Origin: a virus
Lineage: Duplodnaviria > Caudoviricetes
DNA: 64,000 nucleotides
Direction: 5' to 3' (one strand)
IMG/VR virus record: IMGVR_UViG_3300012016_000699
Coordinates: 1-64,000 of that record
The notes under the pieces are model-generated. The model did no database searches, had not been told where the DNA came from, and saw only the letters and a program-made list of their open reading frames with translations. This document shows positions 32,530 to 62,995 of the stretch, one piece after another. Both the position numbers and the translations under genes were made by a program. The stretch's first letter is position 1. The number at the start of each line of letters is the position of its first letter.

Positions 32530-33996
32530 CTACTTCATATTATGTTTCTTAATCAGTTGTTCTATCTCTTCGTCTGACGGAGGCGTGAAGCCGAGGGCTA
32601 CAGCTGAGCATAGCTTGAAACAGGGATAGCGCCCGGAATAGTCTGCCGTGATCGACGAGAACAGCGGCAGCTGGTCATCTTCTCGCGCCTTGTCGAGCTT
32701 GGCCTTGTTGTCTGGTAGGCCCGTCCATACCTTGTACGGCTGGCCTTCGAACAGAATGCTCATGAGGTGTTTCGGCTTCGGCGGCTCAATGCCGACGGTG
32801 TTGCCTCCGTTCTCAAGAACCTCCCTGTCGTAGCGGTCCTGCTCCCTGCGAGGTATGACGTCCGGCTCAAAGTCGACGATGACAAATGGCTTGCCGATGA
32901 GCTTGTTCGCACCTAAGTCCGAACCCTTCAGTCTTCTCTTTCCGTTTGGATATGCGGCCTCCGCATGTACTTCTCCTATATCCGTCATAGATTTACCTGT
33001 TAATGTTCTGAATAAATGCTTGCAGTCTCCCCATTTCGCCATTCCCTTGAGGCTTCCTACCACCTCCTGCCTACGCTTGCGGCTCCTGACTTTTGCCAGC
33101 CTTCTCGCTGCCTTCTGCTTGGTGCGCTTGCGCAGCCTTGCCTTCCTGCCGTCGTAGACGAACCCGAGGAAGTCGATGCCCTCGCTCAAAGGCCTCACGA
33201 CCTCGTTGGGCTTGATCACTAGTCCGAGTCTGGCCACCTGCTCGTGCATGATATCACGCAGCATCCACAGCTTCCGCTTCGACCCTGCGAGGATCACGAT
33301 ATCGTCACAGTACCTGTAGTAGTACCTTACACCGAGGACATCCTTGAACCAGTGGTCGATGGCGCTCAGGATGATGTTGCCATAGCACTGCGACGAGCGC
33401 AGCCCGATTGACAGCCCCTTCGGCATCATCGTCACGAAGTTCTGCAGCATCGGCAGCAGGATTGGATCCTTGACATAGTGCAGGACCACCTCCCACATCA
33501 GCTGCTGGTCTATCGACTCGAAGAACTTGCGGATGTCGCACTTGTAGAAATACCTTGTGCCTTCGCGGTCGTTCTCGATATCATGGCGCATCTTCTCAAA
33601 CAGGTGGTGCATACCCCTTCCGGGGATGCTCGCTGCAGAGGTTCTGATGACGGTCGGATAGACCTTGTCCTCCACGATGCGCATGATGGCGTTGCAGCCG
33701 ATACGGTCCTCGACGCACGGGCTTTGTACGATTCTGTCCTTCGGCCCGTCGGTGACCTCCATTTCAGTATATTTGATGACTCTGAACGTGCCCGAGGATA
33801 TCCTTCTGGTAAGGCGTTCGATGATCTTCTTACGCCTCTTCCTGTAGTAGGTCTTCCTGCCTGGCAGCTCTATTGTCGTTCCGTCTGGAAGACGCTTCTT
33901 CCTATCATGCAGTTGGTCAACCACCTCGTCGAACGCCCGGTCCATGTTGTCCGGATCGACGATCAGCGGTATCAGATTTCCGAATCTCGTTGGCAT
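32530..33996 (-). CDS. DGR reverse transcriptase with C-terminal extension
   Basis: KCDIRKFF, GLSIGLRSSQ, YRYCDD, GIDFLG; adjacent to TR/VR. Confidence 0.95.
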   Translation of the reverse strand: MPTRFGNLIPLIVDPDNMDRAFDEVVDQLHDRKKRLPDGTTIELPGRKTYYRKRRKKIIERLTRRISSGTFRVIKYTEMEVTDGPKDRIVQSPCVEDRIGCNAIMRIVEDKVYPTVIRTSAASIPGRGMHHLFEKMRHDIENDREGTRYFYKCDIRKFFESIDQQLMWEVVLHYVKDPILLPMLQNFVTMMPKGLSIGLRSSQCYGNIILSAIDHWFKDVLGVRYYYRYCDDIVILAGSKRKLWMLRDIMHEQVARLGLVIKPNEVVRPLSEGIDFLGFVYDGRKARLRKRTKQKAARRLAKVRSRKRRQEVVGSLKGMAKWGDCKHLFRTLTGKSMTDIGEVHAEAAYPNGKRRLKGSDLGANKLIGKPFVIVDFEPDVIPRREQDRYDREVLENGGNTVGIEPPKPKHLMSILFEGQPYKVWTGLPDNKAKLDKAREDDQLPLFSSITADYSGRYPCFKLCSAVALGFTPPSDEEIEQLIKKHNMK

Positions 33997-34525: not shown

Positions 34526-37500
34526 TTATTTGATGTCCTCCTCATTCTCTATTTCACCGAAGAAGCAGAGACGCGCGCCGACGTTCGTGCCCGAGACCGC
34601 CGAAGCGTAATGCGTGTTCGAGTAAGCGACACCCGCGAACGCGTTCGCGTAGTAGCTCGAACGGCCCAACACACGGCCTAGGCCGTTATAGGAGGACTGA
34701 TAAGCTGCGTAGCAGTTGGCCCAGCTGGTCTCTGCAGTGTAAGAAGACACAACGATATCACAGTAGCGTCCGAAACGTACACGTGCGACGCATGTACCCT
34801 GGTTGGCAGACTCTGCCTTGACGTTACGCTCTTGTCCGTCCTGCTGGAGAATACGATAGATGTAGTCAACGACCCATCCTGTGCCCGTCTGGGCTCGATG
34901 GGACTTGATGAATGCGTCGAACGACGGAGCGTTCATACAAGCCTTATCCATCCACTCAAAGAGTGATCCGGTCCAACCTTCCAAGCCCCACATCTTGTTG
35001 AGCTGGCTGGTGTTGCTACCTGAAGCACCAGGCATAAGCGTAATGTCAGAGTCGGCAGCACCGATGCTGTCACGGATACCAGTGGTGTATGACGGCGTAC
35101 CGCCTGCACCAACGATGCTCTCGCAGTCACGGGTACCGAACCATGCCATCATGAGGTTGGCCAGGTCCTTCGATGTTTCGTATCCGACTGTCGTGTACTC
35201 ACCGTTCTGGACTCCTGTCAGTGCCGTGCGGACACGGGCGAGGTTGAAGAAGTCCATTGCCGTACCGTTGATGGCGATGGTTGGCAGTGCTGTCGGGTTG
35301 CCATCAGCATCATAGGTCCAGGAGATATTTGTCGAAGTATTGTTACCACGACTGGTTGCTTTTCCGCTGAGTGATCTCAGACCGCCCGTAGGCGTACCGC
35401 CAGTGGTGATACCAGGGGCATAGCCCTGCCACAGTCCGACGAGTTCCGGAAGGTGCTCCACCCAGTCCGGCTCGATGGCCTCTATCTCCTTCGAGTCTGT
35501 GAGGATAACCTCCGGCAGCTTGGCTGCGCTGAGCTTCGTACATGCGAAGTACAGGTTCGTGGCTTCAGCAGGGATGCTGAGGAATACGTAATCGCCGATA
35601 TCGTTATCAAAGTCGGCAGGGTTGATGACCACACCGTTCTTCTTCACGTCCGTCATCTGGAAAGTGAATATCTGGATGATGTTATCGAAGTCATCGGTGA
35701 AGAGGCAGCAGCCCAGCTTGTCCGTCTTGTCGAGGTAGCCCGGGAAGCGCACCTGCTTCATGCCCTTGACCTCCACTTTGTAGGTGTCGAGGCTGTCAGT
35801 GGTGAAGAACAGCGACTCGTCGATGGCGTCTCCTACGCTGTGGCGGCTGTTCAGAGGCAGTCTGTCCGCAATCTTCGTCAGCTCCGTCAGGGCCAGGCGT
35901 GTGGTTACGGTTGCCGAACTCTTCGGCTGGGTTGTCTTGAACGACGGAAGGAAGTACTTGCGTGCGTTCTTGTAGTCGTTGACACCCTTATACCAGTAAT
36001 GGGGCACGTAGAGGAATCCGTCACGCTCCAGCACGGACGATGATCCCGTATGGTCTGCATTGCTGCCATTGGCGAGCTTCGCATAGTTCTGTCTTGACAA
36101 CTCCTCCACATGCAGCTTGTGTGTGTCGGGGTTGACATAGGCCAGCACGGGAACGCAGTGGTCGTGTATCAGCTTCACGTGACCAGAAGCGTAGTAGCCG
36201 TTAGGGTGATCGATGGTCGGAGTGACGCCGGAACGGTAGTCATAGCCCGTCTTGTTGTCGACATTCGTGATGTTGGCAGGATCAGTCTCAAGATCGTCAA
36301 AGACATACTCAGAGTACTGGCACTCCTCCAGATCGAGGCCGCAGAGAGCGAAGAAGCTCTTCATTGCCTCGAAGTCGTCAACAACATCAAGCAGCTGCAC
36401 GGAACCGATCAGAGCGGGATAGGTCTGCTCCGTTCCGTCGGCCGTAAGTCCGCGGTAGCCAGACATGAACGGACGGAGCATGCTTGAGCGTACGCGTCCT
36501 GTCATGCCCTCGATACGGACATGGGTGATGTTCGAGCATTGCTGCATGATGGCCTGCCAGTCAAGGTACGGGCACTCTGCGAAGTTCAGCGCAGTGATGT
36601 TGCTCGTTCCCTGCAGCGTCAGGCCGCTCTGCTCGAGCTTCGGCAGGTAGCGCAGCGTGAGCGCCTGCAGCGTCGACGGGAGCACCAGCGTAGTGATGGG
36701 CGCACCTTCGGCAAGCTTCACGGTGGTGAGGGCTGTGCCGCCTGCAAGCAGGGTCTTCAGACGGGTCTGCTTCGACAGGTCGAAGAGTCCGGCAGTACCA
36801 GTATGTACAGCTGTCTGGCCGGTGATGTCGACATACTCCAGCTTCGAGATATTACCAAGAGTCAAAGGAGCGTTACTTACACCCATAGTTGCAGGCATCA
36901 CGAGCTTTGCAAGCATGGTACACAGAGACAAACCGACAGTACCGTTCAACTGAGAACCCATGTTCGTAAGGTCGAGCTCACGCAGGCAGCTTGCACCACC
37001 GAGCATCAGCGGGTCGTTCGTAGCCAGTGTTCCTGTGAACTGGAGAGTCAGGTTCTCGCCTGCGGCAACCTTGGTAGGACCTTGCAGCCAGAGACCGTTG
37101 AGCTTGTAACCGAAATAGTACAGGTCGCCAGATGTCAGCTTCATAGAAGAATAGGCATCGCCAGCGTTTCTGACTACAGTGAACGTCACGACATCGCCGT
37201 TATAGTTTCCTGCGCCATAGCGGGCATCAAGCAGACGTGCACGGTCAGCAAGGAACTGTCTGATGTGATCCTCTCTGCTACCAGTCAGAGTATAGACGTA
37301 GTTCATGTTTTCGATGGTGTCGATGTACTTGAGCTTACCTGACTTGTTGTACTGACGTGGACTCCAGTTGCCAATCATGGTGCCGATAAATTCATCGAGC
37401 ATCACCTGTGTTGACATGGCGTTACGGAGATTAACGGCGCATGCTTTCAGTTCTTCCTCGAAGTTTGCAAGCACAAGACACCATAACCATGAGTTATGAC

Positions 37501-40500
37501 CTTCAAATGCGTACTTACTGCGCTCAGAGTCGTAGCTGTCACGGGTAATATTGTAGAGATAAACGATGAAAGCATCATTTCTGATGGCTTCCCATGTATC
37601 ACCGTCGTAGAACGTAGAGAACCACTTCAAACCATCCCATGTGCGCCAGATTATATTCTTGGCCAGCTGGTCTTTACCAGCGAGATAGTCAATGAAGATA
37701 TAGTAAGTCAGCAGGTGGTCGCGGTCGAAGTAATTTGAAATCTCGTTCTTGAACTTCTGGCTCACCCACTTTGCCTTTGACTCATCGCTCCAGCCGAGCT
37801 GTGTACCGAAGTCTGGGCTTGCTGGGGTCATGTTGCCTGCCTTGTAGCCTGCGGTGTCGCAGAAGCAGTCGTAGATCCATCCCATCCAGCGCTTGATGGC
37901 TGCACGGGCACCCTCCACGGGCTTTACGGACCACTTGTTCTTGCCTGCGTCCCACTGGCCCTCATCGACATTCGCCCACTTTGCGTCTTCGGGGAAGTTG
38001 AATTCGAAACCGTCGTCGAACTGCTTCGAGAGCTGTGCGGAGAGGTCCGGGCTGTCGGCAGAGCCTGCAGGCTGGAACAGTGTCATCGGAGATGCGTTGT
38101 TCAATGCCTCCAAAGCGATAGACATCGGATTCAGTGTTTCGTCACCGCTGAAACCGCTGACACCCTCCATGCCGAATATCTTGCCAGACTTTGATTTCTC
38201 GTTGTTGAGAACGAACTGTCCGCAATAGGTCAGAGAGCCTTGCTCCGATGTGCCTGCGAAGATGTCACAAGGCAGACCGTCAACAGACTGACGTACCCTT
38301 GCGTCATACTCCTGTGGAGGTGTGTTCAGACCAAGCTGATTCATGACGTTGTGGAACAGATGGGCACCACCTGTATTACCAGCAAGTGAAGAGTCAACGA
38401 AGTCCGTCTTAGCACAGAGCACGGCCTGGTCGATTGAGTTGGCATTGCCACGAAGAGCATAGCCACTGGCCGTTGCCGTTACGTCCACACCACCGATCTT
38501 CAGCACGCGGGCTACGTCGCCCTGCTGTGTAGTCAGGTAGATACGGATATTCTTATATGGGTACTTCACGGATGACGTACCTTGTATGCGGATTCTCACG
38601 TTACGCGCCTCGAAGCCTTCACCGATAGGGTTTCCATTGCTGTCGAGAGGAGGCTCCCATCGAACGAGGTCGGCCTTGAAGTTCTGCTTCTTGTCGGCAC
38701 ATGCGAACAAGTCGGACAAGCCCATGCCGGAGTCACCGCTTCTGATGATAGTCAGAACGCCGCGTCCCCTTGACAGGAGCGTGTCACGGCTGATGGCGAT
38801 GTTACCGTCAGCATCGCTTGTCTTGTTGGTGTCACCGACGTTGTTGTCCTCGGATGCGCTCTGTATCTCAGCAGCCGTCGGACGGTCAATGATCCAGTTT
38901 GACAGAACTTCGTCAGCACTCAGCGGATTGCGGTAGTAGCGCAAGCCACGGATGCGGATGTCTGCCTTATCTGAATCGAAAGTAAGGTCAGCGGGTGTGT
39001 TCTGTCTCAGAGAGCCAGTATATCTGTTAGCTGCCGACAGAACGCCATTGATGAACATCATGGCCAGTCCGTAGCCGCTTGTAACAGGCTGAATCACGAA
39101 TGCCACATGCTCCCAACGGTCAATAGCGATATTCTTTGCCACACCGTGAGGGCGTGAGATCTTCAACTTAACGGGCTCTTCCACGGGATTGCCCTCGTAG
39201 TCGATATAGTTGCCGTTCTCGTCAACGAGATCCTCGGCAGTGGTGATTTCCTCCACGCCTCCGAAATACAAGCCTGCTTCCTCAGTCGTAATCTTGATAC
39301 CCATTGGGTATCCAGAGTTATTGTTATCACAGAGACAGCTCATGATAGTTGCGCCACGCTCCATGACCTGCGATATCATGATCTCCATCTCCAGCGTCAT
39401 ACCGCGACCCTGGATGGAGTAGTCGCCATCCTCAACGTCCTGCACGAACGGGCGCAGGCCGACGATGGCACGCGAGCCGTTGGTGAGCAGCAGCGTATCG
39501 ACGCCCTGTGAGTCCTTGCCCCAGCCGTTTGTGCGCCAGTCCACGCCGTAGAACTTCGTGATGCCTCCCCAGTCGGCGGGGTTGGCCTCGCTGTTCGAGC
39601 GGCCTGTGGCAGTCAGCTTCTTACGGTAGCCTACGGTCTCCGTCTCGGAGATGCCGGAGGCAGTGACGGCCACTGCGAAAGTACGAACGCTCTCGCCGCA
39701 GGTAATCGTCATGGCATGGTTGCCGGAGGTGTCGAAGCGCTGGATGATCGACTGCATCGTGCGGCCTACGGCCAGTGTCTGGGTAGTAACGCCATCGACG
39801 GCCACTACTATTTCGCTCGTCAGTGCATCGGCATTCCATGCTGCGATATCCATCACAAGCTCACTGAACTGGGCAACCGTGGCAGGCAGTCCGGTATTGC
39901 CATAGGCGAACGGCAGCGGCATATCGCTCAGCTGTGCGACGGGAGCCGACATGCGCAGACCGACGTATTCCGCCTCGGAGCCTGCCTTCAGCAGGTCGAC
40001 GATGACTGCGTTGGAGAGCAGGCCTCCGCTTTCCGCCAGCAGCTGAATGTTATGGCGTCCTGCCGCGAGGTTCGATGCCTGCAGATAGATATAGTTTCTT
40101 CCTGTACCGCCGATGGTGGTCGTCGAGTCGAGGACTCCGTCCACCCAAACACGGAGCGTCGTGCCTGTAGGAACGGTATAGGTATAAGGGATGCTGACGG
40201 TCTGTCCGTTCACGTAGCCATTGCTCAGCGCAAGCTGAGAGGCAGGGTCGAACGTAGTAGCCAGGTCCATGGTGATGACCGTCACGGTCTTTGAGCTGCG
40301 ACTGGTCTTCACTTCCTCGTCGATAGGCGTAGTAGCCATAACCTGGATGTTCACCGTGCCTGCTGACGTGATCTTCGATGCGTCGAGGGTCAGCATGCGG
40401 ACGGTGTCGCTCGGAGCCACCAGTGAGTGCATCTCGCTGTGGACCGTCGTAGTACCTACCTTCACGGTTATCTCCACTGTCTGGGCTGGGTAGTTGGCAC

Positions 40501-41113
40501 GCTCCGAGGTACCCTCAAAGGTTCTCAGACAGTCGTATTTCCACGTCATGATGATCGTGTCTCCCAGCTTCGTCACGGCTGGGGTCAGCAAGGCGGTTGT
40601 CACCTTCGGGGCAATAACTTCACCTATCTCCTGCGCTGCTGGAATCTGTGCAGAGAACACTTCATCACCTTGAGCGTTACGGAAGATCAGCGGCACCATA
40701 CCGCCAGACTCCTGTGTGGCGTCCACCTCAGCCTCTACCGGCAGGTTTGAGTTCAGTGCGTTGATCTCGCTTGTGATGACGTTGTTAGCCACAGGGTTCG
40801 GGCTCACGGCACTGAGCGACTGGTCCACGACGGGAACGCTGAGGTTCACCTTGCCGTTGGGATCCTTCTCCACTTCGGAGTTGTTCACTGTCACGCCTGC
40901 CACCTTGCCTGCGAGAGCCGTCTCTGCAGCAGCGCTGATGTGCTGCTCACGGAGGAAACGCTCTATCTCCCCCTTGTTGATGCCCCACTCGGCACCTGCG
41001 GGAATGGTCACGCCATGCACCGTGATGGGGGCGTTGGTGTTGTTCACGCCGCCCCAGGGGTCATTCTTGCTTGTCAGGATGTTCGTTCCTGGAATAGTAA
41101 TTTTCTTTGCCAT
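34526..41113 (-). CDS. Large tail fibre/receptor-binding protein, DGR target (LamG-like, CotH-like, LRR, C-type-lectin-fold VR)
   Basis: 2195 aa; VR at the C-terminus; LRR-like LxxLxL repeats; ConA/LamG-like WEHVAFVI...FINGVL...LRYYRNPLS. Confidence 0.88.
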   Translation of the reverse strand: MAKKITIPGTNILTSKNDPWGGVNNTNAPITVHGVTIPAGAEWGINKGEIERFLREQHISAAAETALAGKVAGVTVNNSEVEKDPNGKVNLSVPVVDQSLSAVSPNPVANNVITSEINALNSNLPVEAEVDATQESGGMVPLIFRNAQGDEVFSAQIPAAQEIGEVIAPKVTTALLTPAVTKLGDTIIMTWKYDCLRTFEGTSERANYPAQTVEITVKVGTTTVHSEMHSLVAPSDTVRMLTLDASKITSAGTVNIQVMATTPIDEEVKTSRSSKTVTVITMDLATTFDPASQLALSNGYVNGQTVSIPYTYTVPTGTTLRVWVDGVLDSTTTIGGTGRNYIYLQASNLAAGRHNIQLLAESGGLLSNAVIVDLLKAGSEAEYVGLRMSAPVAQLSDMPLPFAYGNTGLPATVAQFSELVMDIAAWNADALTSEIVVAVDGVTTQTLAVGRTMQSIIQRFDTSGNHAMTITCGESVRTFAVAVTASGISETETVGYRKKLTATGRSNSEANPADWGGITKFYGVDWRTNGWGKDSQGVDTLLLTNGSRAIVGLRPFVQDVEDGDYSIQGRGMTLEMEIMISQVMERGATIMSCLCDNNNSGYPMGIKITTEEAGLYFGGVEEITTAEDLVDENGNYIDYEGNPVEEPVKLKISRPHGVAKNIAIDRWEHVAFVIQPVTSGYGLAMMFINGVLSAANRYTGSLRQNTPADLTFDSDKADIRIRGLRYYRNPLSADEVLSNWIIDRPTAAEIQSASEDNNVGDTNKTSDADGNIAISRDTLLSRGRGVLTIIRSGDSGMGLSDLFACADKKQNFKADLVRWEPPLDSNGNPIGEGFEARNVRIRIQGTSSVKYPYKNIRIYLTTQQGDVARVLKIGGVDVTATASGYALRGNANSIDQAVLCAKTDFVDSSLAGNTGGAHLFHNVMNQLGLNTPPQEYDARVRQSVDGLPCDIFAGTSEQGSLTYCGQFVLNNEKSKSGKIFGMEGVSGFSGDETLNPMSIALEALNNASPMTLFQPAGSADSPDLSAQLSKQFDDGFEFNFPEDAKWANVDEGQWDAGKNKWSVKPVEGARAAIKRWMGWIYDCFCDTAGYKAGNMTPASPDFGTQLGWSDESKAKWVSQKFKNEISNYFDRDHLLTYYIFIDYLAGKDQLAKNIIWRTWDGLKWFSTFYDGDTWEAIRNDAFIVYLYNITRDSYDSERSKYAFEGHNSWLWCLVLANFEEELKACAVNLRNAMSTQVMLDEFIGTMIGNWSPRQYNKSGKLKYIDTIENMNYVYTLTGSREDHIRQFLADRARLLDARYGAGNYNGDVVTFTVVRNAGDAYSSMKLTSGDLYYFGYKLNGLWLQGPTKVAAGENLTLQFTGTLATNDPLMLGGASCLRELDLTNMGSQLNGTVGLSLCTMLAKLVMPATMGVSNAPLTLGNISKLEYVDITGQTAVHTGTAGLFDLSKQTRLKTLLAGGTALTTVKLAEGAPITTLVLPSTLQALTLRYLPKLEQSGLTLQGTSNITALNFAECPYLDWQAIMQQCSNITHVRIEGMTGRVRSSMLRPFMSGYRGLTADGTEQTYPALIGSVQLLDVVDDFEAMKSFFALCGLDLEECQYSEYVFDDLETDPANITNVDNKTGYDYRSGVTPTIDHPNGYYASGHVKLIHDHCVPVLAYVNPDTHKLHVEELSRQNYAKLANGSNADHTGSSSVLERDGFLYVPHYWYKGVNDYKNARKYFLPSFKTTQPKSSATVTTRLALTELTKIADRLPLNSRHSVGDAIDESLFFTTDSLDTYKVEVKGMKQVRFPGYLDKTDKLGCCLFTDDFDNIIQIFTFQMTDVKKNGVVINPADFDNDIGDYVFLSIPAEATNLYFACTKLSAAKLPEVILTDSKEIEAIEPDWVEHLPELVGLWQGYAPGITTGGTPTGGLRSLSGKATSRGNNTSTNISWTYDADGNPTALPTIAINGTAMDFFNLARVRTALTGVQNGEYTTVGYETSKDLANLMMAWFGTRDCESIVGAGGTPSYTTGIRDSIGAADSDITLMPGASGSNTSQLNKMWGLEGWTGSLFEWMDKACMNAPSFDAFIKSHRAQTGTGWVVDYIYRILQQDGQERNVKAESANQGTCVARVRFGRYCDIVVSSYTAETSWANCYAAYQSSYNGLGRVLGRSSYYANAFAGVAYSNTHYASAVSGTNVGARLCFFGEIENEEDIK
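34564..34679 (-). repeat. DGR variable repeat (VR)
   Basis: Matches TR except 14 positions, all TR adenines; encodes the C-terminal GRSSYYANAFAGVAYSNTHYASAVSGTNVGARLC. Confidence 0.95.
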
Positions 41114-45402: not shown

Positions 45403-45759
45403 CTATGAATTTAGGGTGAATAAATATTTGGCCCAGGCATAGTGCCTGCGTACTTCGTTGTAATAGACCTCTTCCTGATGTTCGTATGCTTCCTGTTCGA
45501 AGCTGATGCTCATATAGGCCCTATCTCTGTTGAACTTGCAGAACGGCAGCTTGATGATCCACTCCAAGACGTAAATCAGAAAAAACAGAAGGAACAGACA
45601 TTCCGCTTGCTGTAATGCGTGAGTCGTCTCGTGACGTTCAACCTTTTTAGTATATTTTTCAGCACGATCTTTACGGACAAAGACGAATGGATATATCGTC
45701 AACGCCGTGTAGCACTTAAATGGGAAACTCCCTGTTATTATCTGCCTTAACTTAACCAT
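45403..45759 (-). CDS. Small HExxH (zincin-like) membrane-associated protein
   Basis: RHETTHALQQ, hydrophobic stretch, ISFEQEAY. Confidence 0.65.
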   Translation of the reverse strand: MVKLRQIITGSFPFKCYTALTIYPFVFVRKDRAEKYTKKVERHETTHALQQAECLFLLFFLIYVLEWIIKLPFCKFNRDRAYMSISFEQEAYEHQEEVYYNEVRRHYAWAKYLFTLNS

Positions 45760-48700
45760 TATGTACTCCTTCCCAATTTTTTACACAAAGATGACCATCA
45801 CTATCGACAAAGACATCTCCCTTGCTATATTCTCCTGTGTTTACATCGCTGAAAGTCAACCATGAATCAAATGGTGCAAGAATGCGTAATTTATTGTTAT
45901 ACATCTTTACTGTAAGAACGGCACTTGCCCCGCCATAAGAATTGCTTTCGATTTTCATTTCACCAGGATATATATAAGTCTGGCCTCCTGAAGGATCATA
46001 CAATCTTAATCTCGGTTCCATATTCGTTCCCGAAGAATATTGCCAGAATCCAAGGTCAAACAATTCATTATAGCTGTTGTCTATTCCTCTGATTCCAGAG
46101 CGTTTGATGGATGTTCCCTCGTCAACGTAAATTTGCACCTTCCTATTACCTGTCCCAATAGTTGTATTGCCATCAATTTTTCCATGAAATGTACCTGCGA
46201 TAGACAGATTTCCGTTACTGTCAAGGTGGAAAATCTCTTGTTTGGACGAATTCTTTACGCTCCAGTCGAAAGTCGTGAACTTGATGTTATCGGCATCTAC
46301 TTCGAAAGTGGAGAGCTTATCGCTGACATACAACCCAACCTTGCCATTAGCAGCGACATTGCCATTGCTGTCAAACGAAGCGGCTACTACGCTCCACTTG
46401 TTTTTGTTTTGGGAAATCCACGTTGCCGAAGCAGTTTGTTCATCGTCAACATCTTCGATATAATCACGTAAGTTTTCAAAAGCCTTGTCTGCTGCATCCT
46501 TGTTATCCGTAACAGTGGTGGAAATATTATTTACCTGTACTTTCAGATCTGCATATCCTTTGATAGTGCCGTCGGCATTGAACTCTGCTGCCATTAACGA
46601 CAGAAGACGATCATTCTGATATACCCAGGTAGCTTTGTATGTGTCCTCAAGACTCTGACGGTCTGCTATTTCATCATTAAGATCAGATATGAGATTTTCA
46701 AAAGCCTTGTCTGCTGCATCCTTGTTATCCGTAACAGTGGTTCTGATATTATCGAACTCTATTTCTATCTCAGCGACAGCCTGATTCAGATCGGCGGTCT
46801 GCTTTGCGGCCTGCAATAGAATATGGCGAGAAGTCTGCTCGAAGAGAGTCTGATAAGTCTCTTTGCTATTAACGATGGGATCAGTACGCAAAGCAACAAA
46901 TCTGATATAACACTCACCAGTATATGAAAGGATCATACGGCCCTGCTTGCCAGTATAAGCCCAAGGCATAGCCTCAGAATCTCTTGCCTGAACAAGAGTC
47001 CATTCACGCGAAGCATTGATCTGCTCACTCCAAGAAGCAATTGACTGGCCGTTTGAGTTTACGAAAGATACAGTCAGTGTACCAGCAGACAGAGCAATCA
47101 TTCTGACACCCATATACAGAGTATCTTCCACGTCTTCCATGACAGTATAGTCATCACTCTGATCATTGTCGGTTTTGTTCTCTTTGTGAGTACCATTGGC
47201 CTTGATGTCAGAGAAATCCTGATATACACCCATTCCAAGCAAGTGCAGAACTTTGATTCCGTCGTAATCCGTCACCTCTGCTGTGAGGCGGCTCATATAC
47301 GCCAATACGGCACCGTTGACCATCAGTGGCGTGCCGTTGCCGGAGTCGATGACCTGCTGCGCTGGGCTATCCGGGGCTGCGCTGCCGTCGCAGGCACACT
47401 CCGACCATCCTTCCATGTCCCTTGAAAAGAAGCCGTTGGTGAGGAAGTTGTCCTCGTCCTGTATGTTGAACGTGGTCTCCGTGTAGACGCTTCTCAGGCG
47501 CTCACGGGTTATCTCGATACTGGAGTTGAGGCTCTCGCCAGTCTGGCGGTTATACAGCTTTCCGACGGCGTAGATGTTCGGCAAGTAGGCACCGAAGCCC
47601 TCCAGCCATCCGAAGAGGTCAGTGCGGATGCCCTGCAGGTTTCCCTCACGGAGCTTCAGCGCATCGTTCGGGTTGGTCTTCATTCCGTAGTACACATCCT
47701 GGTAAGGTGTGTTCGGTCCTACGGTGATGATCTGCATCAGGCCCTTTCGCTCCGGATCCGTCTCGTTGTCAAGGCGGACGAAGGTGTCTCCCTTCTTGAT
47801 GAGCTGACCAGCGGTATAACTGTCCTCATCTGTCTGGACGGCAACCTCTTCCTGCTGCTCCTCCCCTATCTCGGCCTTCGCTGCCTCAAGCAGTGTACCA
47901 TAGTCGACGGAGCCGCGTGCAACAGGTACGACGGATGCTCCGGCCAGACGGCCTATGATTGTGTCGCTGAGCCAGTGGTAGCGAGTTATCTGCCTGCCCA
48001 TGGCGTACTCGTTTGCAGCCTTCAGTATCAGGTCGGCCTTGTCAGGCATCAGCTCCACGAGGAACAGGGCACCTGCAAAGGTCGTCGAGGAATGGCCGCT
48101 CGGATAGGAATTGGCGAAGACGCTGGCGCGTGAGTCCCTGTCGAAGAGCTCCGGGTCGGTATAGCCTGTCGGCGTTCCGTCGGAATTCTCGATGTCAAGG
48201 TTCACTAGCACGCCTTCCTGCCCTGTCGGTGAGCTGCCGTCCTTGTCGCCCTGTCCTGGACGCCTGCGGCCATAGTACTTACCGTCTAGGAGAGGGCTCC
48301 TGCTGTGTGTGCCGAGCTTGCTGATCTTCTCGTATGAGGTGGCCACTCCGCCGCTGACGGATATCTCCACGCCGATTGTCTCCTCACCGAAGACCGGGTG
48401 GAAGGTGTAGCCACCGCCGTGACGGTTCGGGCCGAAGACGTGGTCGACGGTAGCCTCCTTGTTGGCAATGGCCTGTGCCGTTTCCTGGCTGTATGTGGGG
48501 TTGTTGAGGTTATAGTAGGTCACCACCCTGTTGTGGATGTCAAGGTCTGGTTGCAGGTTGTGGTCGTCGAGGTCGTTGTCGTCATATGGCACGCCTCCGA
48601 TGGACGAGCGGTCGGTATAACCCTTGAGGTACGGGCCCGGTGCTGTCGGCATGAACAGCGACAGGTCTACATAGAACGAGTCCTTGTAGTTGTCGAAGGA

Positions 48701-50329
48701 GGATCCGTAGACGTCAGCCACACTATAGTTGAAAGCTGGCGCGCTGATTTCCGAGCGCAGCTCCTGGATGTCAGGCTTCAGCCTTCCTCGCATGGCGGAG
48801 CAGATGACCGAGGCTACCATACGTCCCACGTTCGGGTCACTCTCGAAGGTGTACTTGTAGATGTAGGCATCTTTTCCGGGTCCGAGGTTATAGCCCGTCT
48901 CCATGATGATGTTCCTCTTGGCTGGGAACATCTCCGTCAGTACCGAGGCGAGCAGCCATCCTGCCACACCGTCGAACGCTTTCTTGTCGACGTCCCTTCC
49001 GTAATAGTCGATGACGTTCGGAAAGAGAGACTTCTTGAAGAGCAGTGGAAGATTGTATGCGGACTTGCCGCTGTAGTACTGCGTGTATGTCTCGTAGAAC
49101 ACTTCCGACAGATACTGGAACGCCTTCGTCCATGCAGGAACGGATATACCTGCAGCCTTGACGAAATGGCTGAGGTACTCGGAGGTCTTCGTCTGTATCT
49201 CTACGGGAACGTCCTTCACGGCCACGCCTCCTTCTTCGGTGCTCATGGACGTGGTGAAGTTCTTGAAGGTTACCCAGTCCAAGCGGTCTCCGTTCTCATC
49301 CTCCATTCCTCCCGTTCCGGAGTCCGTGATGACGAGCTCGTAGCTCTTGGTGATGTAGCCGTCGCCGCCACCTACGACGTCGTTGCCTGGCTGGTACTGC
49401 TGGCACTTGATGTAGTCACCCTTGCGGAAGGAGACTGCCTTGATGCGCCCGCACTCCGTGGAAAGCCACACCTTGCCAGTGTCGGGATCGTAGTGATGCA
49501 CCTCCATCATCGCCGCAAAGACGTAGTTGTCGAACTCGCCCCTCAGCTGCGAGACAATCATCTCGTAGACACGCAGCGTCTCGCGGACGGTGACGTTGTC
49601 TATCTCCAGCGTATAGTACTCCTCCTCCACGCCAACGGCATTGATGCGTGTCTTCTTCTGGATGGCCCAGCCCTTGCCGCCGAGGAAGGCACTGATGAAC
49701 TCCACCGACGAAAGGTTGCCGCCGAAGGTCGAGTCGTTCACCACAAAGAGCTCCTGCAGCTTGGCGAGGCCTCTGGTAATGAGCGTCTTGATCTCCACGT
49801 GTCCCTCCGGGGTGATGATGCCGCCCTCCACGCCCTCGGCATAGTAGCCGATGAGGATATTGCCGAGCGTCTGGAGGCCGACCTTGAAAATGGTCTGGTT
49901 CGTCACCTCGTCGATATGGGCGGTGTTGGCATAGACCTCCCTTGCCCTCATGAGGTTGCGGACAGTGGCATAGTCGATCTCGATGTTCCATGTGTCGACG
50001 GCATTCTTCCAGATGCTGAAGCCATCGCCCGTGTTCACGTCCCTGCCCCTGGCATCCTTCACCCATTCTCCCAGATGGAAGTCTGGGGACTTGGCGAACA
50101 TATCGACGATGAGCCCCGCGAGGAATGTCACAAGATGGTGCGTCTCGTCGTCATGCGCCTTGGAGATATACATGGAGTCGTACACCCTCAACAGGTAGAG
50201 CAGGTCAAGGAACGCCTTACCGATGCGGGCCGCGGTGTTCGCCCCGGCCTGCGTCTCGTCCCTGATGACCTTGTACTCGCTCTCAAGGCTCTCTATCTGC
50301 TGATTAAGTTCCTGCATCGACAATGCCAT
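45752..50329 (-). CDS. Large tail tip/fibre protein with inserted PAP2 acid-phosphatase module
   Basis: 1525 aa; tail-type LEIDNVTVRETLRVYEMIVSQLRG; internal RRRP, SYPSGH, RQITRYHWLSD. Confidence 0.8.
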   Translation of the reverse strand: MALSMQELNQQIESLESEYKVIRDETQAGANTAARIGKAFLDLLYLLRVYDSMYISKAHDDETHHLVTFLAGLIVDMFAKSPDFHLGEWVKDARGRDVNTGDGFSIWKNAVDTWNIEIDYATVRNLMRAREVYANTAHIDEVTNQTIFKVGLQTLGNILIGYYAEGVEGGIITPEGHVEIKTLITRGLAKLQELFVVNDSTFGGNLSSVEFISAFLGGKGWAIQKKTRINAVGVEEEYYTLEIDNVTVRETLRVYEMIVSQLRGEFDNYVFAAMMEVHHYDPDTGKVWLSTECGRIKAVSFRKGDYIKCQQYQPGNDVVGGGDGYITKSYELVITDSGTGGMEDENGDRLDWVTFKNFTTSMSTEEGGVAVKDVPVEIQTKTSEYLSHFVKAAGISVPAWTKAFQYLSEVFYETYTQYYSGKSAYNLPLLFKKSLFPNVIDYYGRDVDKKAFDGVAGWLLASVLTEMFPAKRNIIMETGYNLGPGKDAYIYKYTFESDPNVGRMVASVICSAMRGRLKPDIQELRSEISAPAFNYSVADVYGSSFDNYKDSFYVDLSLFMPTAPGPYLKGYTDRSSIGGVPYDDNDLDDHNLQPDLDIHNRVVTYYNLNNPTYSQETAQAIANKEATVDHVFGPNRHGGGYTFHPVFGEETIGVEISVSGGVATSYEKISKLGTHSRSPLLDGKYYGRRRPGQGDKDGSSPTGQEGVLVNLDIENSDGTPTGYTDPELFDRDSRASVFANSYPSGHSSTTFAGALFLVELMPDKADLILKAANEYAMGRQITRYHWLSDTIIGRLAGASVVPVARGSVDYGTLLEAAKAEIGEEQQEEVAVQTDEDSYTAGQLIKKGDTFVRLDNETDPERKGLMQIITVGPNTPYQDVYYGMKTNPNDALKLREGNLQGIRTDLFGWLEGFGAYLPNIYAVGKLYNRQTGESLNSSIEITRERLRSVYTETTFNIQDEDNFLTNGFFSRDMEGWSECACDGSAAPDSPAQQVIDSGNGTPLMVNGAVLAYMSRLTAEVTDYDGIKVLHLLGMGVYQDFSDIKANGTHKENKTDNDQSDDYTVMEDVEDTLYMGVRMIALSAGTLTVSFVNSNGQSIASWSEQINASREWTLVQARDSEAMPWAYTGKQGRMILSYTGECYIRFVALRTDPIVNSKETYQTLFEQTSRHILLQAAKQTADLNQAVAEIEIEFDNIRTTVTDNKDAADKAFENLISDLNDEIADRQSLEDTYKATWVYQNDRLLSLMAAEFNADGTIKGYADLKVQVNNISTTVTDNKDAADKAFENLRDYIEDVDDEQTASATWISQNKNKWSVVAASFDSNGNVAANGKVGLYVSDKLSTFEVDADNIKFTTFDWSVKNSSKQEIFHLDSNGNLSIAGTFHGKIDGNTTIGTGNRKVQIYVDEGTSIKRSGIRGIDNSYNELFDLGFWQYSSGTNMEPRLRLYDPSGGQTYIYPGEMKIESNSYGGASAVLTVKMYNNKLRILAPFDSWLTFSDVNTGEYSKGDVFVDSDGHLCVKNWEGVHNG
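46473..46741. repeat. 47-bp perfect direct repeat (46473-46519 and 46695-46741)
   Basis: Encodes TTVTDNKDAADKAFEN twice. Confidence 0.9.
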
Positions 50330-50887: not shown

Positions 50888-52087
50888 TTATTCTTTGTCA
50901 GTGTTCTCGTTGCTGATGTGCCGTACGGGCAGTATCGAGTAGTCGTCCGTCGGGCATACAGGGTTCCCTCCGTTAAGGCTCGTCGCAAAGCGTGAGAATA
51001 CCTTCCGGAAGATCTTCGCTATCTCGTCACGCTCACGTGTCACGCAGCTGTTGTAGTAGGCGAAGGCATCGTCCACGACGGTGCCGGAGAATCCCAGCTT
51101 GCCAGTGCGGATGCAGTAGAACACCTCCTGGTTGAAGGCGGCATAGATACGCTCTTCAGTCGACTTCTCCGTGGTCTCGAACTTCTTGTCGAAGTTCTGG
51201 GCCTCGAAGGACTTGAACTCCGGGAAATCCTCATCCTGGTTGATGGTGACATCCATGATGGCGCAGGCGTTCTCGTCGCCCTGGAAGATGTCGAGGCTGT
51301 CGCTGATGGCGTTGCCATCGTCCTCTTCCTTGATCTGCCTGCCTGTCTCCGGGTCGATGCCAAGCTGCATGGCTTTCTTGTGGATGAACATACCCGCAAG
51401 AAGGAAGTTGTTGCGGACGTTACGGTACTTCACGTTGTCAAGGCCGTCGTCTGTGCTCATGCACGTCACCACGCCGTCATAGATGGGCGTGGGGTACTTG
51501 AAGCGTCCGTCCATGGAGTACCAGAGGATCTGCCCGAGGTACTTGTCCATGCCCCCGCTCTCCTCCACCTGGTCGAGTACGACGAAGGGGTTCGGGTTGA
51601 ATACGTAGAACTTCTTGACGTTCTCCGCCGTGACGCTGATGCGGTTGCCGGAGCGGGTCTTCCTGCCCGTCCAGTCGGGGTGGTAGTTGATGTAGGTGAC
51701 ATGCCCGAGGTCGTCCTCCTCCTCCAGGCGGCATGCCTCGAACGGGATGTGCTGGACCTCCACGATCTGCCCCATCATGTCGTAGTTCACATGAAGGGCG
51801 AAGCCGCTGAGCTCCGCGAGGTCCTTGGCGACGAGGTGCAGCAGCTCCGCCACGGTCTCCCGCGAGCGGTTGCACACGAAGTCGGCCAGCATCTTGTCGG
51901 CAAAGCCTCCGCCCTCGATGAAGTCCTTGTAGCGCTTGCAGCACGTCCCTGCCGTCGGGGAGTTCCTCAGAAGCTCTATCATACGCTGCGGATAGAGGTT
52001 ATCCTTGCCGTATGACTGGATGTTCATCGTCGACAAGTAGCGTACGTCAAAGCGGCGCTGTGCTTTCTTTACGTTATGGATGTTCAT
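50888..52087 (-). CDS. Portal protein
   Basis: 399 aa; YGKDNLYPQ, GFALHVNY, HIPFEACR, NNFLLAGM typical of Bacteroidetes phage portals. Confidence 0.8.
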   Translation of the reverse strand: MNIHNVKKAQRRFDVRYLSTMNIQSYGKDNLYPQRMIELLRNSPTAGTCCKRYKDFIEGGGFADKMLADFVCNRSRETVAELLHLVAKDLAELSGFALHVNYDMMGQIVEVQHIPFEACRLEEEDDLGHVTYINYHPDWTGRKTRSGNRISVTAENVKKFYVFNPNPFVVLDQVEESGGMDKYLGQILWYSMDGRFKYPTPIYDGVVTCMSTDDGLDNVKYRNVRNNFLLAGMFIHKKAMQLGIDPETGRQIKEEDDGNAISDSLDIFQGDENACAIMDVTINQDEDFPEFKSFEAQNFDKKFETTEKSTEERIYAAFNQEVFYCIRTGKLGFSGTVVDDAFAYYNSCVTRERDEIAKIFRKVFSRFATSLNGGNPVCPTDDYSILPVRHISNENTDKE

Positions 52088-52123
52088 AAAGGGCGGTTGC
52101 TATTGATTGGGTGAAAAACGGTC

Positions 52124-52888
52124 TTACTTCTTGGCAGCTGGCTTGCCTTCCTTCGGTGCCTCCTCAGCAGCCTTGCCATCAGCGGATGCGGCGGCTTCCT
52201 CGGCAGGTTTCTCGGCAGGCTGCGCTGCGGCCTTGGCGGCAGCCTCCTTCAGGGCGGCGATCTCTGCGTCCCTGGCGGCGATGACGGAGTTGAGGCGGGC
52301 AACCTCCTCGCCAGCTTCGGCCTTACCTTTCTCCATGGCCTCCTTCAGGGCGGCGATCTCGGCTTCCTTGGCCTCGAACGTCTTCTCGGCTCCCTCCATC
52401 TTCTCGGAGAGCTCCTTGTTGACGGCCTTCAGGCCCTCTACCTGCTTCAACAGCTCTTCCTTACTGATCTCGTCGGCGGCAGTCTTCTGCTCAGACTTGA
52501 CGGCCTTGCGTGCTGCCAATACCTCATCAAGGTTGTCGGGAACCTTCTGGAAGAGGTCTAGACGACCGATGTTGTCGTTCAGTGCGTCCATGGCGATAAC
52601 GTCTGTGAGGTTGTCATTGACGTACGACTCCCCGGCGAAGTGCAGCAGCACTCCGGCACGAAGGATGAATAACTTTTCCTTTTGCATTTTTCCTTGCTTT
52701 TTAAGTTTGTTGATAATCTCAAGGTAGGCGTCGCGGTAGCAGTCCCTGCAGGCCGTATTGCGTACGGGCCTCCCGAGAACGGCGATGCTCGCCTCCTGTA
52801 AGAAAAGCCTGTCAGAGGAAGAGAAGCCGTCATCAAAGCGGCTCCTCATCTCTGCCAGACGGTCCATAACCCCGCTATAGGTAAGCAT
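52124..52888 (-). CDS. hypothetical protein (CxxC, coiled-coil/Ala-rich tail)
   Basis: 254-aa ORF in the head module. Confidence 0.65.
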   Translation of the reverse strand: MLTYSGVMDRLAEMRSRFDDGFSSSDRLFLQEASIAVLGRPVRNTACRDCYRDAYLEIINKLKKQGKMQKEKLFILRAGVLLHFAGESYVNDNLTDVIAMDALNDNIGRLDLFQKVPDNLDEVLAARKAVKSEQKTAADEISKEELLKQVEGLKAVNKELSEKMEGAEKTFEAKEAEIAALKEAMEKGKAEAGEEVARLNSVIAARDAEIAALKEAAAKAAAQPAEKPAEEAAASADGKAAEEAPKEGKPAAKK

Positions 52889-52902
52889 AGGCTACGAGAG
52901 GA

Positions 52903-53481
52903 TTATGCGTTACCAAGGGCGTTGAGAAGCGCACGTGTGGCCGTTTCAGACTCATTGAAGAGGAAAAGGCCGGAAGACGGTGCGTTCTGCTCCTGGAGCG
53001 TGACGCTCCATCCGCCGTCGGTATCGTCAGAGTTCAGGTCACGAGTGCCTGCAGTGAGCTTCAGACCCTGCTCGAAGCCGTACACCTCGAACTTGTTCTT
53101 GGAGTCTGAGCCTGCAAACACGTTCTCCAGCACGATGACGAACTTGCCGTTCGCCAGCTTGTCGATGATGTCGTGGCTCACATCAGGACCGCTGTTGAGG
53201 ATGACGAACGACACGGTCTTGTTCCATTTCGTCCGGTATGTCCCAACCACTGCCTCTATCAGCGTACCGTTGAACGGTGTCCCTTCTGGTACGATGATCT
53301 TATAGCCCTTGGCACCATTGGCCAGGGCAAGGGCAGTGATGATGTTCGCTGCACGGTTGCAGGAAGCCTTCAGCACATCCTCGTAGTTCACGATGTAGCC
53401 AATCTTCTCGACACCCTTCTGTGGGAGGTTCTCACAGTCGAACTCGATGCTCTTGGCTATCTTGAAATCACAGTTTCCCAT
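52903..53481 (-). CDS. Major structural protein (tail-tube candidate)
   Basis: 192 aa right after the capsid gene; FEVYGFEQGL...GGWSVTL. Confidence 0.55.
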   Translation of the reverse strand: MGNCDFKIAKSIEFDCENLPQKGVEKIGYIVNYEDVLKASCNRAANIITALALANGAKGYKIIVPEGTPFNGTLIEAVVGTYRTKWNKTVSFVILNSGPDVSHDIIDKLANGKFVIVLENVFAGSDSKNKFEVYGFEQGLKLTAGTRDLNSDDTDGGWSVTLQEQNAPSSGLFLFNESETATRALLNALGNA

Positions 53482-53500
53482 TTACAGTAGCGTTTAACGG

Positions 53501-54598
53501 TTAATAAGCTGCCTGCAGGAGCGCATCCTCGCCGATGAGCGTACCGATGGTAGAGCTGGCGTAGATGTGGTTCTTGCGGGTGATATCGTCGAACTTGATC
53601 GACAGAGAGGCGATCTTGTCCTTGTCCTCGGTACCGACGAACAGGTTCTTCGGAGACACGACGATGGCACGGTGCGGGTTGTTCACGCGCTCCGTGGTGA
53701 CGGCGTTGTCACCCTCACCGGTGGTGGTGGTGATGGTCTCGTACTTCTTGATCATGCGGTCCCAGATGTCCAGGACGATGATGGGCGTGCCGTCGTACTC
53801 CGACAGGGCGATGCCCTTGGCGATCTGCTCCACCGTCAGGGTGCACTTCACGCGCTTGTACACGTCGTTGCGCAGGGCCTTGAACAGCGAGTTGGTCATG
53901 ATGAGACATGCCTGGTCGTCGTCGAAGATACGCGAGTCGGCATCCTGCAGCAGGTCGTCCACGATGCCGATGGCAGTGCCCTCGACCTTGATGGCTGCCA
54001 TCTGGGCTGCCAGTGTGGACTGTGCGTTGGCGGCGATGGTCGTGCGCTGACGGCTGTTAGCCGCACAGACGGCGAAGATGCGCTTCCACAGACCGTCGGC
54101 AGTGGTGAAGAGCTTGGTCTTCACGCCGTCGGTGATGACACCGCCGTCGGACACGTTCTTGGCCTGCTTGTCGCCGAACCACACCATACGCCAGAACATC
54201 TGCTTCATGACACGCTGCAGCAGCGGCATGAGGACGGTGTCCCAGTACGGGGTGTCCTGCAGGTCGGCCTTGTCGGTGCCGGCCTTGAGGCCTGCCTTGC
54301 CGATGGTGTTCTCGATGTCGGTGTAGCAGAGGTACTCGGCCACTTCCCATGTTCCGAGCTCCCACTCCTTCTCGACACCGGTGATCTTCACTTTCTCATA
54401 CTCAGGGTCGCAACCGCCACCCTTCACGCCGACGTCCTGCATGGTGTCGACATAATCGAGCTTCTGGCCGTTCTCCACCTCAGTCTTCTGTGTGGTGACC
54501 TTCTCCACGTCAGGATCCTCGAAGGTCTGCAGGAAGAGCAGGTCCTTCAGGTCGGTAATCGCACCGTTGTCAACGGTGAACTGTTCCCAATTAATCAT
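53501..54598 (-). CDS. Major capsid protein
   Basis: 365 aa downstream of the Clp protease; highly biased codons; RMVWFGD...DGLWKRI. Confidence 0.75.
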   Translation of the reverse strand: MINWEQFTVDNGAITDLKDLLFLQTFEDPDVEKVTTQKTEVENGQKLDYVDTMQDVGVKGGGCDPEYEKVKITGVEKEWELGTWEVAEYLCYTDIENTIGKAGLKAGTDKADLQDTPYWDTVLMPLLQRVMKQMFWRMVWFGDKQAKNVSDGGVITDGVKTKLFTTADGLWKRIFAVCAANSRQRTTIAANAQSTLAAQMAAIKVEGTAIGIVDDLLQDADSRIFDDDQACLIMTNSLFKALRNDVYKRVKCTLTVEQIAKGIALSEYDGTPIIVLDIWDRMIKKYETITTTTGEGDNAVTTERVNNPHRAIVVSPKNLFVGTEDKDKIASLSIKFDDITRKNHIYASSTIGTLIGEDALLQAAY

Positions 54599-54654
54599 AT
54601 CCTTTAAAGTTTTTTTGAATTGTTACTAATGTTGATAAAACTCTCACGGAAGAC

Positions 54655-55989: not shown

Positions 55990-56004
55990 ATGCGTATGAT
56001 TTTC

Positions 56005-56045
56005 CCGCAAAATTAGGACAATAGGATAAGGGGTGAAAAAAACTT
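56005..56045 (-). promoter_or_regulatory. Putative promoter of the head operon
   Basis: TAATTTTG (TAnnTTTG) at 56008-56015 on minus strand. Confidence 0.5.
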
Positions 56046-56080
56046 CCGAATATTCCGCTGAACGATTCGCGCAGTGTTTC

Positions 56081-56112
56081 CTTGCACCTTTCCTTTTTTC
56101 TTCGTATCTTTG
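56081..56112 (+). promoter_or_regulatory. Promoter of the EEP gene
   Basis: CTTG-N20-TATCTTTG. Confidence 0.7.
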
Positions 56113-56143
56113 CACCGTTTTTCAACTGAACTTTGCGGTTTTT

Positions 56144-56812: not shown

Positions 56813-56817
56813 AACTG

Positions 56818-56862
56818 AAAAAGGGAAGGCCGGCACCGTCATGGATACCAGCCTTCCCCTTT
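56818..56862. terminator. Probable bidirectional terminator
   Basis: AAAAAGGGAAGGC...GCCTTCCCCTTT between convergent genes. Confidence 0.7.
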
Positions 56863-56891
56863 CCAGGATGTGCGGGAGGATTACCCCTCTC

Positions 56892-57122: not shown

Positions 57123-57127
57123 AGCTT

Positions 57128-60685: not shown

Positions 60686-60689
60686 AATG

Positions 60690-62993: not shown

Positions 62994-62995
62994 GA

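Follow-up and report, generated by a model that had tools for sequence, protein, structure and literature searches.

Known virion enzymes and the subject of this report

Virion-borne enzymes govern which bacteria a phage reaches. Those known are glycosidases, lyases, deacetylases/esterases, peptidases and cell-wall lysins and, for phages of Gram-positive hosts, teichoic-acid-cleaving phosphodiesterases (phi29 gp12 and the GDPD domains of staphylococcal baseplates). Class A acid phosphatases have broad specificity and an acidic pH optimum, and some enzymes of the wider PAP2 superfamily cleave pyrophosphate or phosphodiester. The subject here is a gene for a tail-fibre-like protein into which a PAP2/class A acid-phosphatase module is inserted in frame. 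It lies in a 64,000-nucleotide stretch of DNA (positions 1 to 64,000 of IMG/VR virus record IMGVR_UViG_3300012016_000699; Duplodnaviria, Caudoviricetes), which is referred to as the window. A review of virion-enzyme classes covers depolymerases, deacetylases and esterases, and lysins, and the string 'phosphat' is absent from its text (PMC5380687). We give a probability of roughly one half to the reading developed below: that the gene product is a tail-fibre-type protein of a temperate Prevotellaceae phage, carrying an inserted PAP2 enzyme that is predicted to act on the phosphorylated host envelope at adsorption.

The inserted module and its catalytic residues

The carrier gene (45752..50329; minus strand, as are all the features located below) encodes a protein of 1525 residues, designated P0001 (open reading frame list and translation). 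Its source record is an IMG/VR provirus of 101,963 bp that CheckV rates as complete, and the coding capacity of the window is almost wholly on the minus strand. The N-terminal part of the carrier (residues 1-368; 49226..50329) is the part that BLASTP mapping finds kept in homologues without the insertion. It is followed by the PAP2 module (residues 369-838, 470 residues; 47816..49225), delimited by the map of homologues and by the AlphaFold2 model. The flanks LDWVTFKNFTTSM (350-362) and AGQLIKKGDTFVRLDN (840-855) are ~470 residues apart, and the module is bounded on both sides by acidic linkers: STEEGG precedes it and EIGEEQQEEVAVQTDEDSY follows it. A preceding reading of the DNA made from the letters alone (the sequence-only reading) had proposed just such an in-frame module of about 470 residues between these flanks, and its coordinates are confirmed.

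The assignment to PAP2 rests on several kinds of match, which are well outside what chance would produce. Pfam PAP2 (PF01569) scores 40.9 bits at residues 728-803 (E 2e-10), where the gathering cut-off is 27.2; 9 other members of the module family also pass this cut-off. In a sequence search of the PDB, residues 740-826 align gap-free with residues 144-230 of the class A acid phosphatase of E. blattae (1d2t; E 1e-11), with ~35-40% identity over 87 residues, the alignment stopping at that enzyme's own C terminus. The module also shares the YHWxSD and NSYPSGHS signatures with class A phosphatases. The NCBIfam PhoC equivalog (NF045654) scores 73.8 bits, below its cut-off of 430, and the match is confined to the last ~88 residues; judged by sequence, the module is not a PhoC equivalog.

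The catalytic domain, which has the class A acid-phosphatase fold, extends over residues 536-828 (47846..48724; VIA-align to PhoN, Foldseek). Motif 2, SYPSGH (741-746; 48092..48109), aligns with S148-G149-H150 of 1d2t, and motif 3, GRQITRYHWLSD (778-789; 47963..47998), lies gap-free on R183, H189 and D193, so that H746, R779, H785 and D789 fall on H150, R183, H189 and D193 of the E. blattae enzyme. (Motif 3 reads G778-R779-x5-H785-x3-D789, with Gly in place of the canonical Ser, and is counted here as an instance of SRX5HX3D.) Motif 1 is a variant that emerges from the family alignment: YGRRRP (686-691; 48257-48274), with GRRRP as its core (687-691; 48257..48271). A direct search of the translation finds YGRRRP, SYPSGH and GRQITRYHWLSD at the places where the sequence-only reading had seen them.

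Conservation was assessed across 94 full-length modules that represent three architectures. R688, R690, S744, G745, H746, R779, H785 and D789 are invariant (94/94), and P691 is kept in 93/94. The same eight catalytic residues are present in 11/11 modules of the clade of giant proteins to which P0001 belongs. D498 and D595, which lie outside the catalytic core, are also invariant in 94/94 modules; K624 and R677 are further invariant residues. Of the motifs that had been taken to define PAP2 phosphatases, the Ser, Gly and His of PSGH and the Arg, His and Asp of SRx5Hx3D are upheld as invariant; Kx6RP is not (P0001 has K-x5-RP, and its Lys is not conserved). In this fold, H785 would be the phospho-histidine nucleophile, D789 its partner and H746 the general acid, with the Arg, Ser and Gly residues binding phosphate. 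We take the module for a divergent, soluble PAP2 phosphohydrolase that is probably active.

A Gly/Ser/Thr/Asp-rich insertion of 53 residues separates motifs 1 and 2 of P0001 (residues 692-739; 48113-48256). It contains a conserved IExxDG element, D717 being present in 81/94 modules; it might bind a metal or act as a lid over the substrate.

Predicted fold and the degenerate repeat

AlphaFold2, supplied with an alignment of 46 module sequences, yields one compact all-helical unit (predicted local distance difference test (pLDDT) 94.3; predicted TM-score 0.93). (A combined alignment of carriers and free-standing modules misplaced the module-only rows and was kept out of folding.) The PAP2 fold that had been read from the motifs is borne out by this model. 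The top 20 Foldseek matches in the PDB are all class A acid phosphatases, and VIA-align places model residues 168-460 on PhoN (2a96_A) with Z 18.8 and a root-mean-square deviation of 2.6 over 213/217 residues. Further class A enzymes follow at Z 15-18, LpxE at 11.6 and PgpB at 10.7, and the vanadium haloperoxidases 1idq, 8cxl, 4usz, 1qi9 and 8vgx score 8.4-9.9.

The N-terminal 160 residues of the module (369-528; 48746..49225) form a separate helical domain in this all-helical model, with weak matches in the PDB (Z<6). Within it, residues 458-524 (48758..48958) are a degenerate copy of the PAP2 motif-3 helices: when the N half of the family alignment is compared with the C half by hhalign, module residues 90-156 align with 383-445 (probability 95.5%, E 1.5e-8). 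The copy lacks the catalytic Arg and His and retains an Asp, residue 498, in 94/94 modules. A degenerate preceding copy had been proposed from the single sequence. The profile comparison upholds it and pairwise BLASTP of the two halves does not (E 0.12, not significant); at the level of the family, as judged from aligned sequences, the repeat is real.

These structural comparisons bear on whether the module could instead be a vanadate-dependent haloperoxidase, which the sequence-only reading had kept in view as an alternative. Haloperoxidases share the active-site template common to PAP2 enzymes and a layout of two bundles with a degenerate N-terminal repeat. The neighbours of the module in the ESM Atlas are unnamed PAP2 clusters, mostly from Uroviricota, and one of these clusters has the VCPO_2nd family in 10% of its members. 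Against this, the fold match to haloperoxidases is at Z 8-10 compared with 15-19 for class A phosphatases, YHWxSD, NSYPSGHS and the stretch of ~35-40% identity over 87 residues belong to the phosphatases, and the anaerobic rumen or gut presumably offers little peroxide. We regard haloperoxidase activity as highly improbable.

An optional insertion

A search of 5.8 billion proteins with P0001 yields 113 other homologue clusters, and among these only P0002 and P0003 cover residues 369-838 in the BLASTP map. In 111/114 clusters the module is absent, and a residue at ~362-384 is joined straight to one at ~833-844. The junction in the insertion-less carriers is a short linker, NFTTxME..TPE.LIxKGDTFVRVDN, which in P0001 is opened between STEEGG and the Glu/Asp-rich stretch. 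The PAP2 module is an in-frame, optional insertion among the homologues of its carrier, as the sequence-only reading had expected an alignment of homologous tail proteins to reveal.

A tree restricted to the carrier parts unites P0001, P0002 and P0003 in one clade (SH-aLRT 96), which is nested within insertion-less proteins. A very divergent carrier, P0115, has the module at the same site as P0001, which implies at least two events of gain or loss. The module has been under purifying selection: relative to the orthologue at locus L020, the module has a dN/dS (nonsynonymous over synonymous substitution rate) of ~0.27 and the N-terminal part of the carrier one of 0.17; dS is close to saturation.

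That the insertion might be an assembly chimera or another artefact, an outcome that the sequence-only reading had named among its possible refutations, has a practically negligible probability. The same architecture is found in separate assemblies: P0002 (14 member sequences from 6 contigs), P0003 (5 from 2 contigs), IMG/VR locus L020 and the divergent P0115. Its recurrence in independent assemblies excludes a chimera. The reading frame is continuous, the GC content of the module (0.574) is that of the adjoining N-terminal part (0.58), and selection on the module, noted above, likewise speaks against an artefact.

The carrier protein

On the C-terminal side, residues 820-1175 (46805..47872) are homologous to the 'minor tail protein' of the Bacteroides hankyphage p00 (25% identity by tblastn, E 4e-13 to 4e-18). 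Within this region lies a jelly-roll beta-sandwich resembling a carbohydrate-binding module (CBM), at residues ~955-1155 (46865..47467), with pLDDT 80-94 in a model of residues 1-1200. In VIA-align, its matches at Z 10-12.5 are CBM4/16/22/61 and the accessory domains of tailspikes and fibres from phages. In BFVD the best matches of the carrier are named 'Tail protein' (E 2e-20), and many entries for tail fibres and receptor-binding proteins follow. P0001 has no signal peptide and no transmembrane helix.

The carrier also has features typical of mosaic fibres. Two exact 17-residue repeats, TTVTDNKDAADKAFENL, were found by searching the translation at residues 1197-1213 and 1271-1287 of the shaft region (46469..46741); they are ~74 residues apart and point to a tandem structural repeat of ~74 residues. 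GC content at third codon positions falls along the gene from 0.83 (residues 1-368) to 0.74 (module), 0.61 (839-1200) and 0.38 (1201-1525). The low-GC3 C-terminal part (residues 1201-1525; 45752..46729) is also the most variable among homologues, and its composition suggests that the distal tip came recently from a source of lower GC content, as happens in mosaic fibre genes.

Many insertion-less homologues, 1760-1930 residues long (P0004, P0005, P0007, P0008, P0010-P0016 and others), have an extra N-terminal extension of ~770 residues, a counterpart of which is found nowhere in the window. Another protein with the module, P0143, has it at the C-terminal end and also contains several PHROG tail-fibre matches.

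Genomic context

Downstream of the carrier gene is the gene for a 2195-residue homologue of the hankyphage tail fibre that is diversified by a diversity-generating retroelement (DGR) (34526..41113; 32% identity over residues 68-2121; phrog_14959). No Pfam family is found in this protein at E<=0.01, which leaves a CotH-kinase identity without Pfam support. The DGR reverse transcriptase follows (32530..33996; phrog_1423 with E 6e-86, and 38% identity to the hankyphage reverse transcriptase). In the annotation of hankyphage p00 (BK010646) the order is tape measure and hub genes, minor tail protein, DGR fibre and reverse transcriptase; downstream of the carrier the window has the hankyphage order of DGR fibre and reverse transcriptase. 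Mass spectrometry of hankyphage particle preparations has detected proteins of the tail module (PMC12135933, S6 table).

By its synteny with hankyphage, its CBM-like domain and its BFVD matches the carrier looks like a tail-fibre protein, and a place in the virion is predicted for it. The sequence-only reading had called it a tail protein outright: hankyphage synteny and 25% identity, the CBM-like domain and BFVD support that name, and PHROGs provide no tail family for it.

The structural genes of the interval 50888-63053 have an unusual order, in which a 1185-residue PhageMin_Tail/TMP-like protein and a 787-residue protein are encoded upstream of ClpP-scaffold and putative capsid genes.

Relatives of the module

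The module is not confined to this gene. An exhaustive HMMER search of 1.84 billion representatives with residues 369-838 gives 613 matches. Sixty of these have E<1e-30, and the family has at least 60 clusters at that level in which the module is conserved as a unit. Among the best ~47 matches (P0115-P0162) nearly the whole ~450-residue unit (query 5-455) is matched; the proteins that contain it range from 530 to 3370 residues, and the position of the module varies. The loci recovered come from 26 viral contigs and from 15 contigs of genomes, mostly metagenome-assembled genomes (MAGs) of rumen Prevotella/Prevotellaceae, with one isolate. The three architectures are a membrane-anchored phage form, a Prevotella lipoprotein and a fusion into a large protein. 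The tie between module and tail protein that the sequence-only reading had drawn thus describes one setting among several, since the module is present in the tail protein and also in membrane-anchored phage proteins, Prevotella lipoproteins and many other fusions.

The phage form (46/94) begins with an N-terminal hydrophobic helix; a stretch rich in Lys and a linker rich in Pro and Glu then lead to the module. Loci with this form are L005, L022-L024, L026-L038, L040 and L041, on viral and Prevotella MAG contigs; the neighbours of one such copy, L027, have no Pfam matches.

In the Prevotella chromosomal form a lipoprotein signal peptide precedes the module (L008, L010-L013; for example L012:7899-9437), and these modules make up one clade that is nested among the phage forms. 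The lipoprotein signals point to an extracytoplasmic use of the module family. In Prevotella sp. ne3005 the gene has an outer-membrane beta-barrel gene on one side and a DD-carboxypeptidase gene on the other. No neighbours of the Prevotella lipoprotein genes are conserved between species, so synteny gives no clue to the substrate.

Fusions into large proteins account for 30 forms. In the module tree P0001 falls into a well-supported clade of 11 giant-protein modules, nested among the membrane-anchored phage forms. The 'giant' state requires at least 10 changes on that tree, which means that the module was joined to large proteins at least 10 times independently; P0143 represents one of these fusions. 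Two copies of the module are found on each of three contigs (L023/L039, 435 kb, and L025/L038, 412 kb, both from IMG/VR; L021/L024, 129.5 kb), and on the 129.5-kb phage contig one copy (L021 and L024 being the two) is in a giant protein and the other is membrane-anchored. The existence of anchored paralogues suggests that this chemistry might also be used from inside the infected cell.

Proposed role at adsorption

The fold, the catalytic set, the optional insertion, the selection on the module and the fibre-like carrier are taken together in the following scheme, of which virion display, activity and substrate are the parts that we infer. A mobile cassette of ~450 residues would have been inserted at the short linker between the N-terminal part of the carrier and its carbohydrate-binding-like domain. 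The resulting soluble enzyme would have two domains, a helical one with a dead partial repeat packing on a complete class A acid-phosphatase fold, and each fibre subunit would display one active phosphohydrolase beside a glycan-binding domain. At adsorption the enzyme would remove phosphate, or cleave a phosphate-linked group, from a component of the host envelope, the bond hydrolysed being a phosphomonoester or possibly a pyrophosphate or phosphodiester. Candidate substrates are phosphates on lipid A or on the core of lipopolysaccharide (LPS), a capsule or exopolysaccharide that is phosphorylated, and the head group of a phospholipid or sphingolipid. The outcome might be that a receptor is exposed or created, or that a cation-bridged surface is loosened. 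Such a protein would modify or destroy a receptor by a kind of chemistry that has not yet been described for virion enzymes.

Several observations weigh against this reading. The canonical motif 1, KX6RP, is missing: K684 of P0001 is one residue out of register, the Lys column varies or has gaps among family members, and the family motif is GRxRP. The chemistry or the substrate may consequently depart from those of classical PAP2 enzymes, although the invariant R688, two residues before the arginine of RP, may take the role of the motif-1 lysine. Nothing in the sequence chooses among the candidate substrates. The AlphaFold2 model of carrier residues 1-1200 (from a carrier-only alignment) is poor, with pLDDT 51.6, and is confident just at ~950-1200; this is to be expected of a trimeric fibre modelled as a monomer. 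P0001 has no PHROG match at E<=0.01. The genes directly upstream of the carrier are not the classical series of tape measure, hub and tip: directly upstream of the fibre gene are a 399-residue protein that matches a portal-annotated PHROG and an adjoining DUF6712 protein, and the TMP-like gene comes ahead of the protease and capsid genes. Finally, Lys and Arg are more numerous after the helix than before it in 42/46 membrane-anchored forms, which by the positive-inside rule predicts an N-out/C-in orientation with a cytoplasmic catalytic domain, and this predicted inward topology of the anchored paralogues is not obviously what a surface-acting enzyme would have. (The inward-facing prediction is an odd one, given the lipoprotein status of the bacterial members of the family.)

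If the absence of the classical motif-1 Lys is given its full weight, and the location of the module beside a CBM-like domain in a protein of receptor-binding type is added, the module could be a lectin-like domain that recognises phosphate and binds a phosphorylated glycan or lipid receptor with little or no turnover. We consider this unlikely. Binding alone would not normally demand that both His, the Asp and the phosphate-binding Arg, Ser and Gly be invariant in 94/94 modules of three architectures, and dead enzymes usually lose the nucleophile, as the module's own N-terminal repeat has done.

The missing PHROG match, the upstream gene order atypical of a tail module and the membrane-anchored, non-structural appearance of most phage copies of the cassette (46/94) would also fit a carrier that is not part of the tail at all: a cell-surface, secreted, lysis-associated, head-fibre or decoration protein, with a phosphatase that acts in or on the infected cell. 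This is quite unlikely, given that the hankyphage tail protein and DGR fibre have homologues here in the same gene order and that tail and fibre proteins dominate the BFVD matches. The CBM-like domain, the long repeats and the mosaic variable tip are typical of fibres, and the carrier has neither the signal peptide nor the transmembrane helix of a surface or secreted protein.

An enzyme displayed on the virion might, on the other hand, act on the environment instead of the host, hydrolysing extracellular nucleotides or organophosphates (apyrase-like, or as scavenging) or phosphorylated matrix polymers, and so aid diffusion or interfere with signalling. The acidic optimum of class A enzymes suits the pH of the rumen, and the relatives are from rumen metagenomes. 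The few enzyme copies that a virion would have nevertheless make bulk scavenging implausible, and the fibre setting, with a glycan-binding domain alongside, suggests the cell surface as the place of action, which leaves this alternative decidedly improbable.

The preferred reading, an enzyme that acts on the host envelope at adsorption, can be extended to the paralogues, though this extension is doubtful. The two-domain PAP2 cassette of Prevotella phages would serve phosphate-based receptor editing, the fibre copy gaining access by removing or cleaving phosphate groups of LPS, lipid A or phosphoglycan, and the anchored paralogues editing that molecule too, within a cell that is infected or lysogenic. 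These paralogues, which are sometimes encoded in the same phage genome, would then block superinfection or stop progeny from being trapped. Were this true, receptor editing would parallel in function what neuraminidase and other receptor-destroying enzymes do, by a chemistry not known before in phages. A histidine phosphatase on a fibre would already by itself bring phosphate groups (possibly lipid A/LPS core phosphates, phosphorylated capsules or phospholipid head groups) among the surface features that phages remodel. The module family is large, modular and confined to abundant, little-studied Prevotellaceae phages of rumen and gut. Expression and assay of a recombinant module should present little difficulty, which makes the receptor chemistry of these phages directly testable, and the module might serve as a tool enzyme for dephosphorylating Bacteroidota envelopes.

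Comparison with known systems

Enzyme domains on fibres are well known, but for a PAP2 phosphatase on one we found no description in the literature, PHROGs and GenBank phages searched, in agreement with the sequence-only reading, which did not recognise a described class of tail enzyme. Literature searches turned up no paper that places an acid phosphatase or another PAP2 enzyme in a tail protein of a phage (the term 'PAP2' is confounded by the phage names PaP1 to PaP3). Comparison of the module with 50,697 deposited phage genomes gave just one weak fragment match, and in PHROGs no family was found for P0001.

The closest enzymes are the class A acid phosphatases (Salmonella PhoN, PhoC and E. 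blattae EB-NSAP; 2a96, 9qcj, 1d2t), which have the same fold, have motif 2 and 3 residues in register with those of the module, and are likewise soluble. They are secreted or periplasmic single-domain enzymes of ~230 residues, whereas the unit described here has 470 residues in two domains and is built into a fibre protein of 1525 residues. Its catalytic domain is larger (~290 residues, with ~80 residues of insertions, 53 of them between motifs 1 and 2), it has an extra helical pseudo-repeat domain of 160 residues, and GRxRP takes the place of Kx6RP.

With vanadium haloperoxidases (1idq, 1qi9, 4usz) the module shares a degenerate N-terminal repeat, the active-site template and apparently a layout of two helical bundles in one chain, but the fold match is much weaker (Z 8-10) and the sequence signatures are those of class A phosphatases. 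Membrane PAP2 lipid phosphatases (PgpB, LpxE, LpxF, LpxT and enzymes of BacA-type function) belong to the same superfamily and have the same catalytic template (Z 10.7-11.6). They are integral membrane proteins that act on envelope lipids (C55-PP, phosphatidylglycerol phosphate and lipid A phosphates), whereas the module is soluble and closer to class A.

The carrier is best compared with the 'minor tail protein' of hankyphage p00, also annotated as 'tail protein with endopeptidase domain' (BK010646, DAC76692), to which it has 25% identity and with which it shares a place upstream of the DGR fibre and reverse transcriptase. The hankyphage protein has no PAP2 module, its N-terminal 660 residues are unrelated by BLAST, and the tape measure and hub genes upstream of it differ from what is found in the window. 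The overall design is nevertheless that of the virion-associated enzymes of fibres and spikes, in which an enzyme domain is likewise mounted on a receptor-binding protein, swapped at domain boundaries and accompanied by carbohydrate-binding domains. What sets the present protein apart from them is its catalytic class, that of a PAP2 histidine phosphatase.

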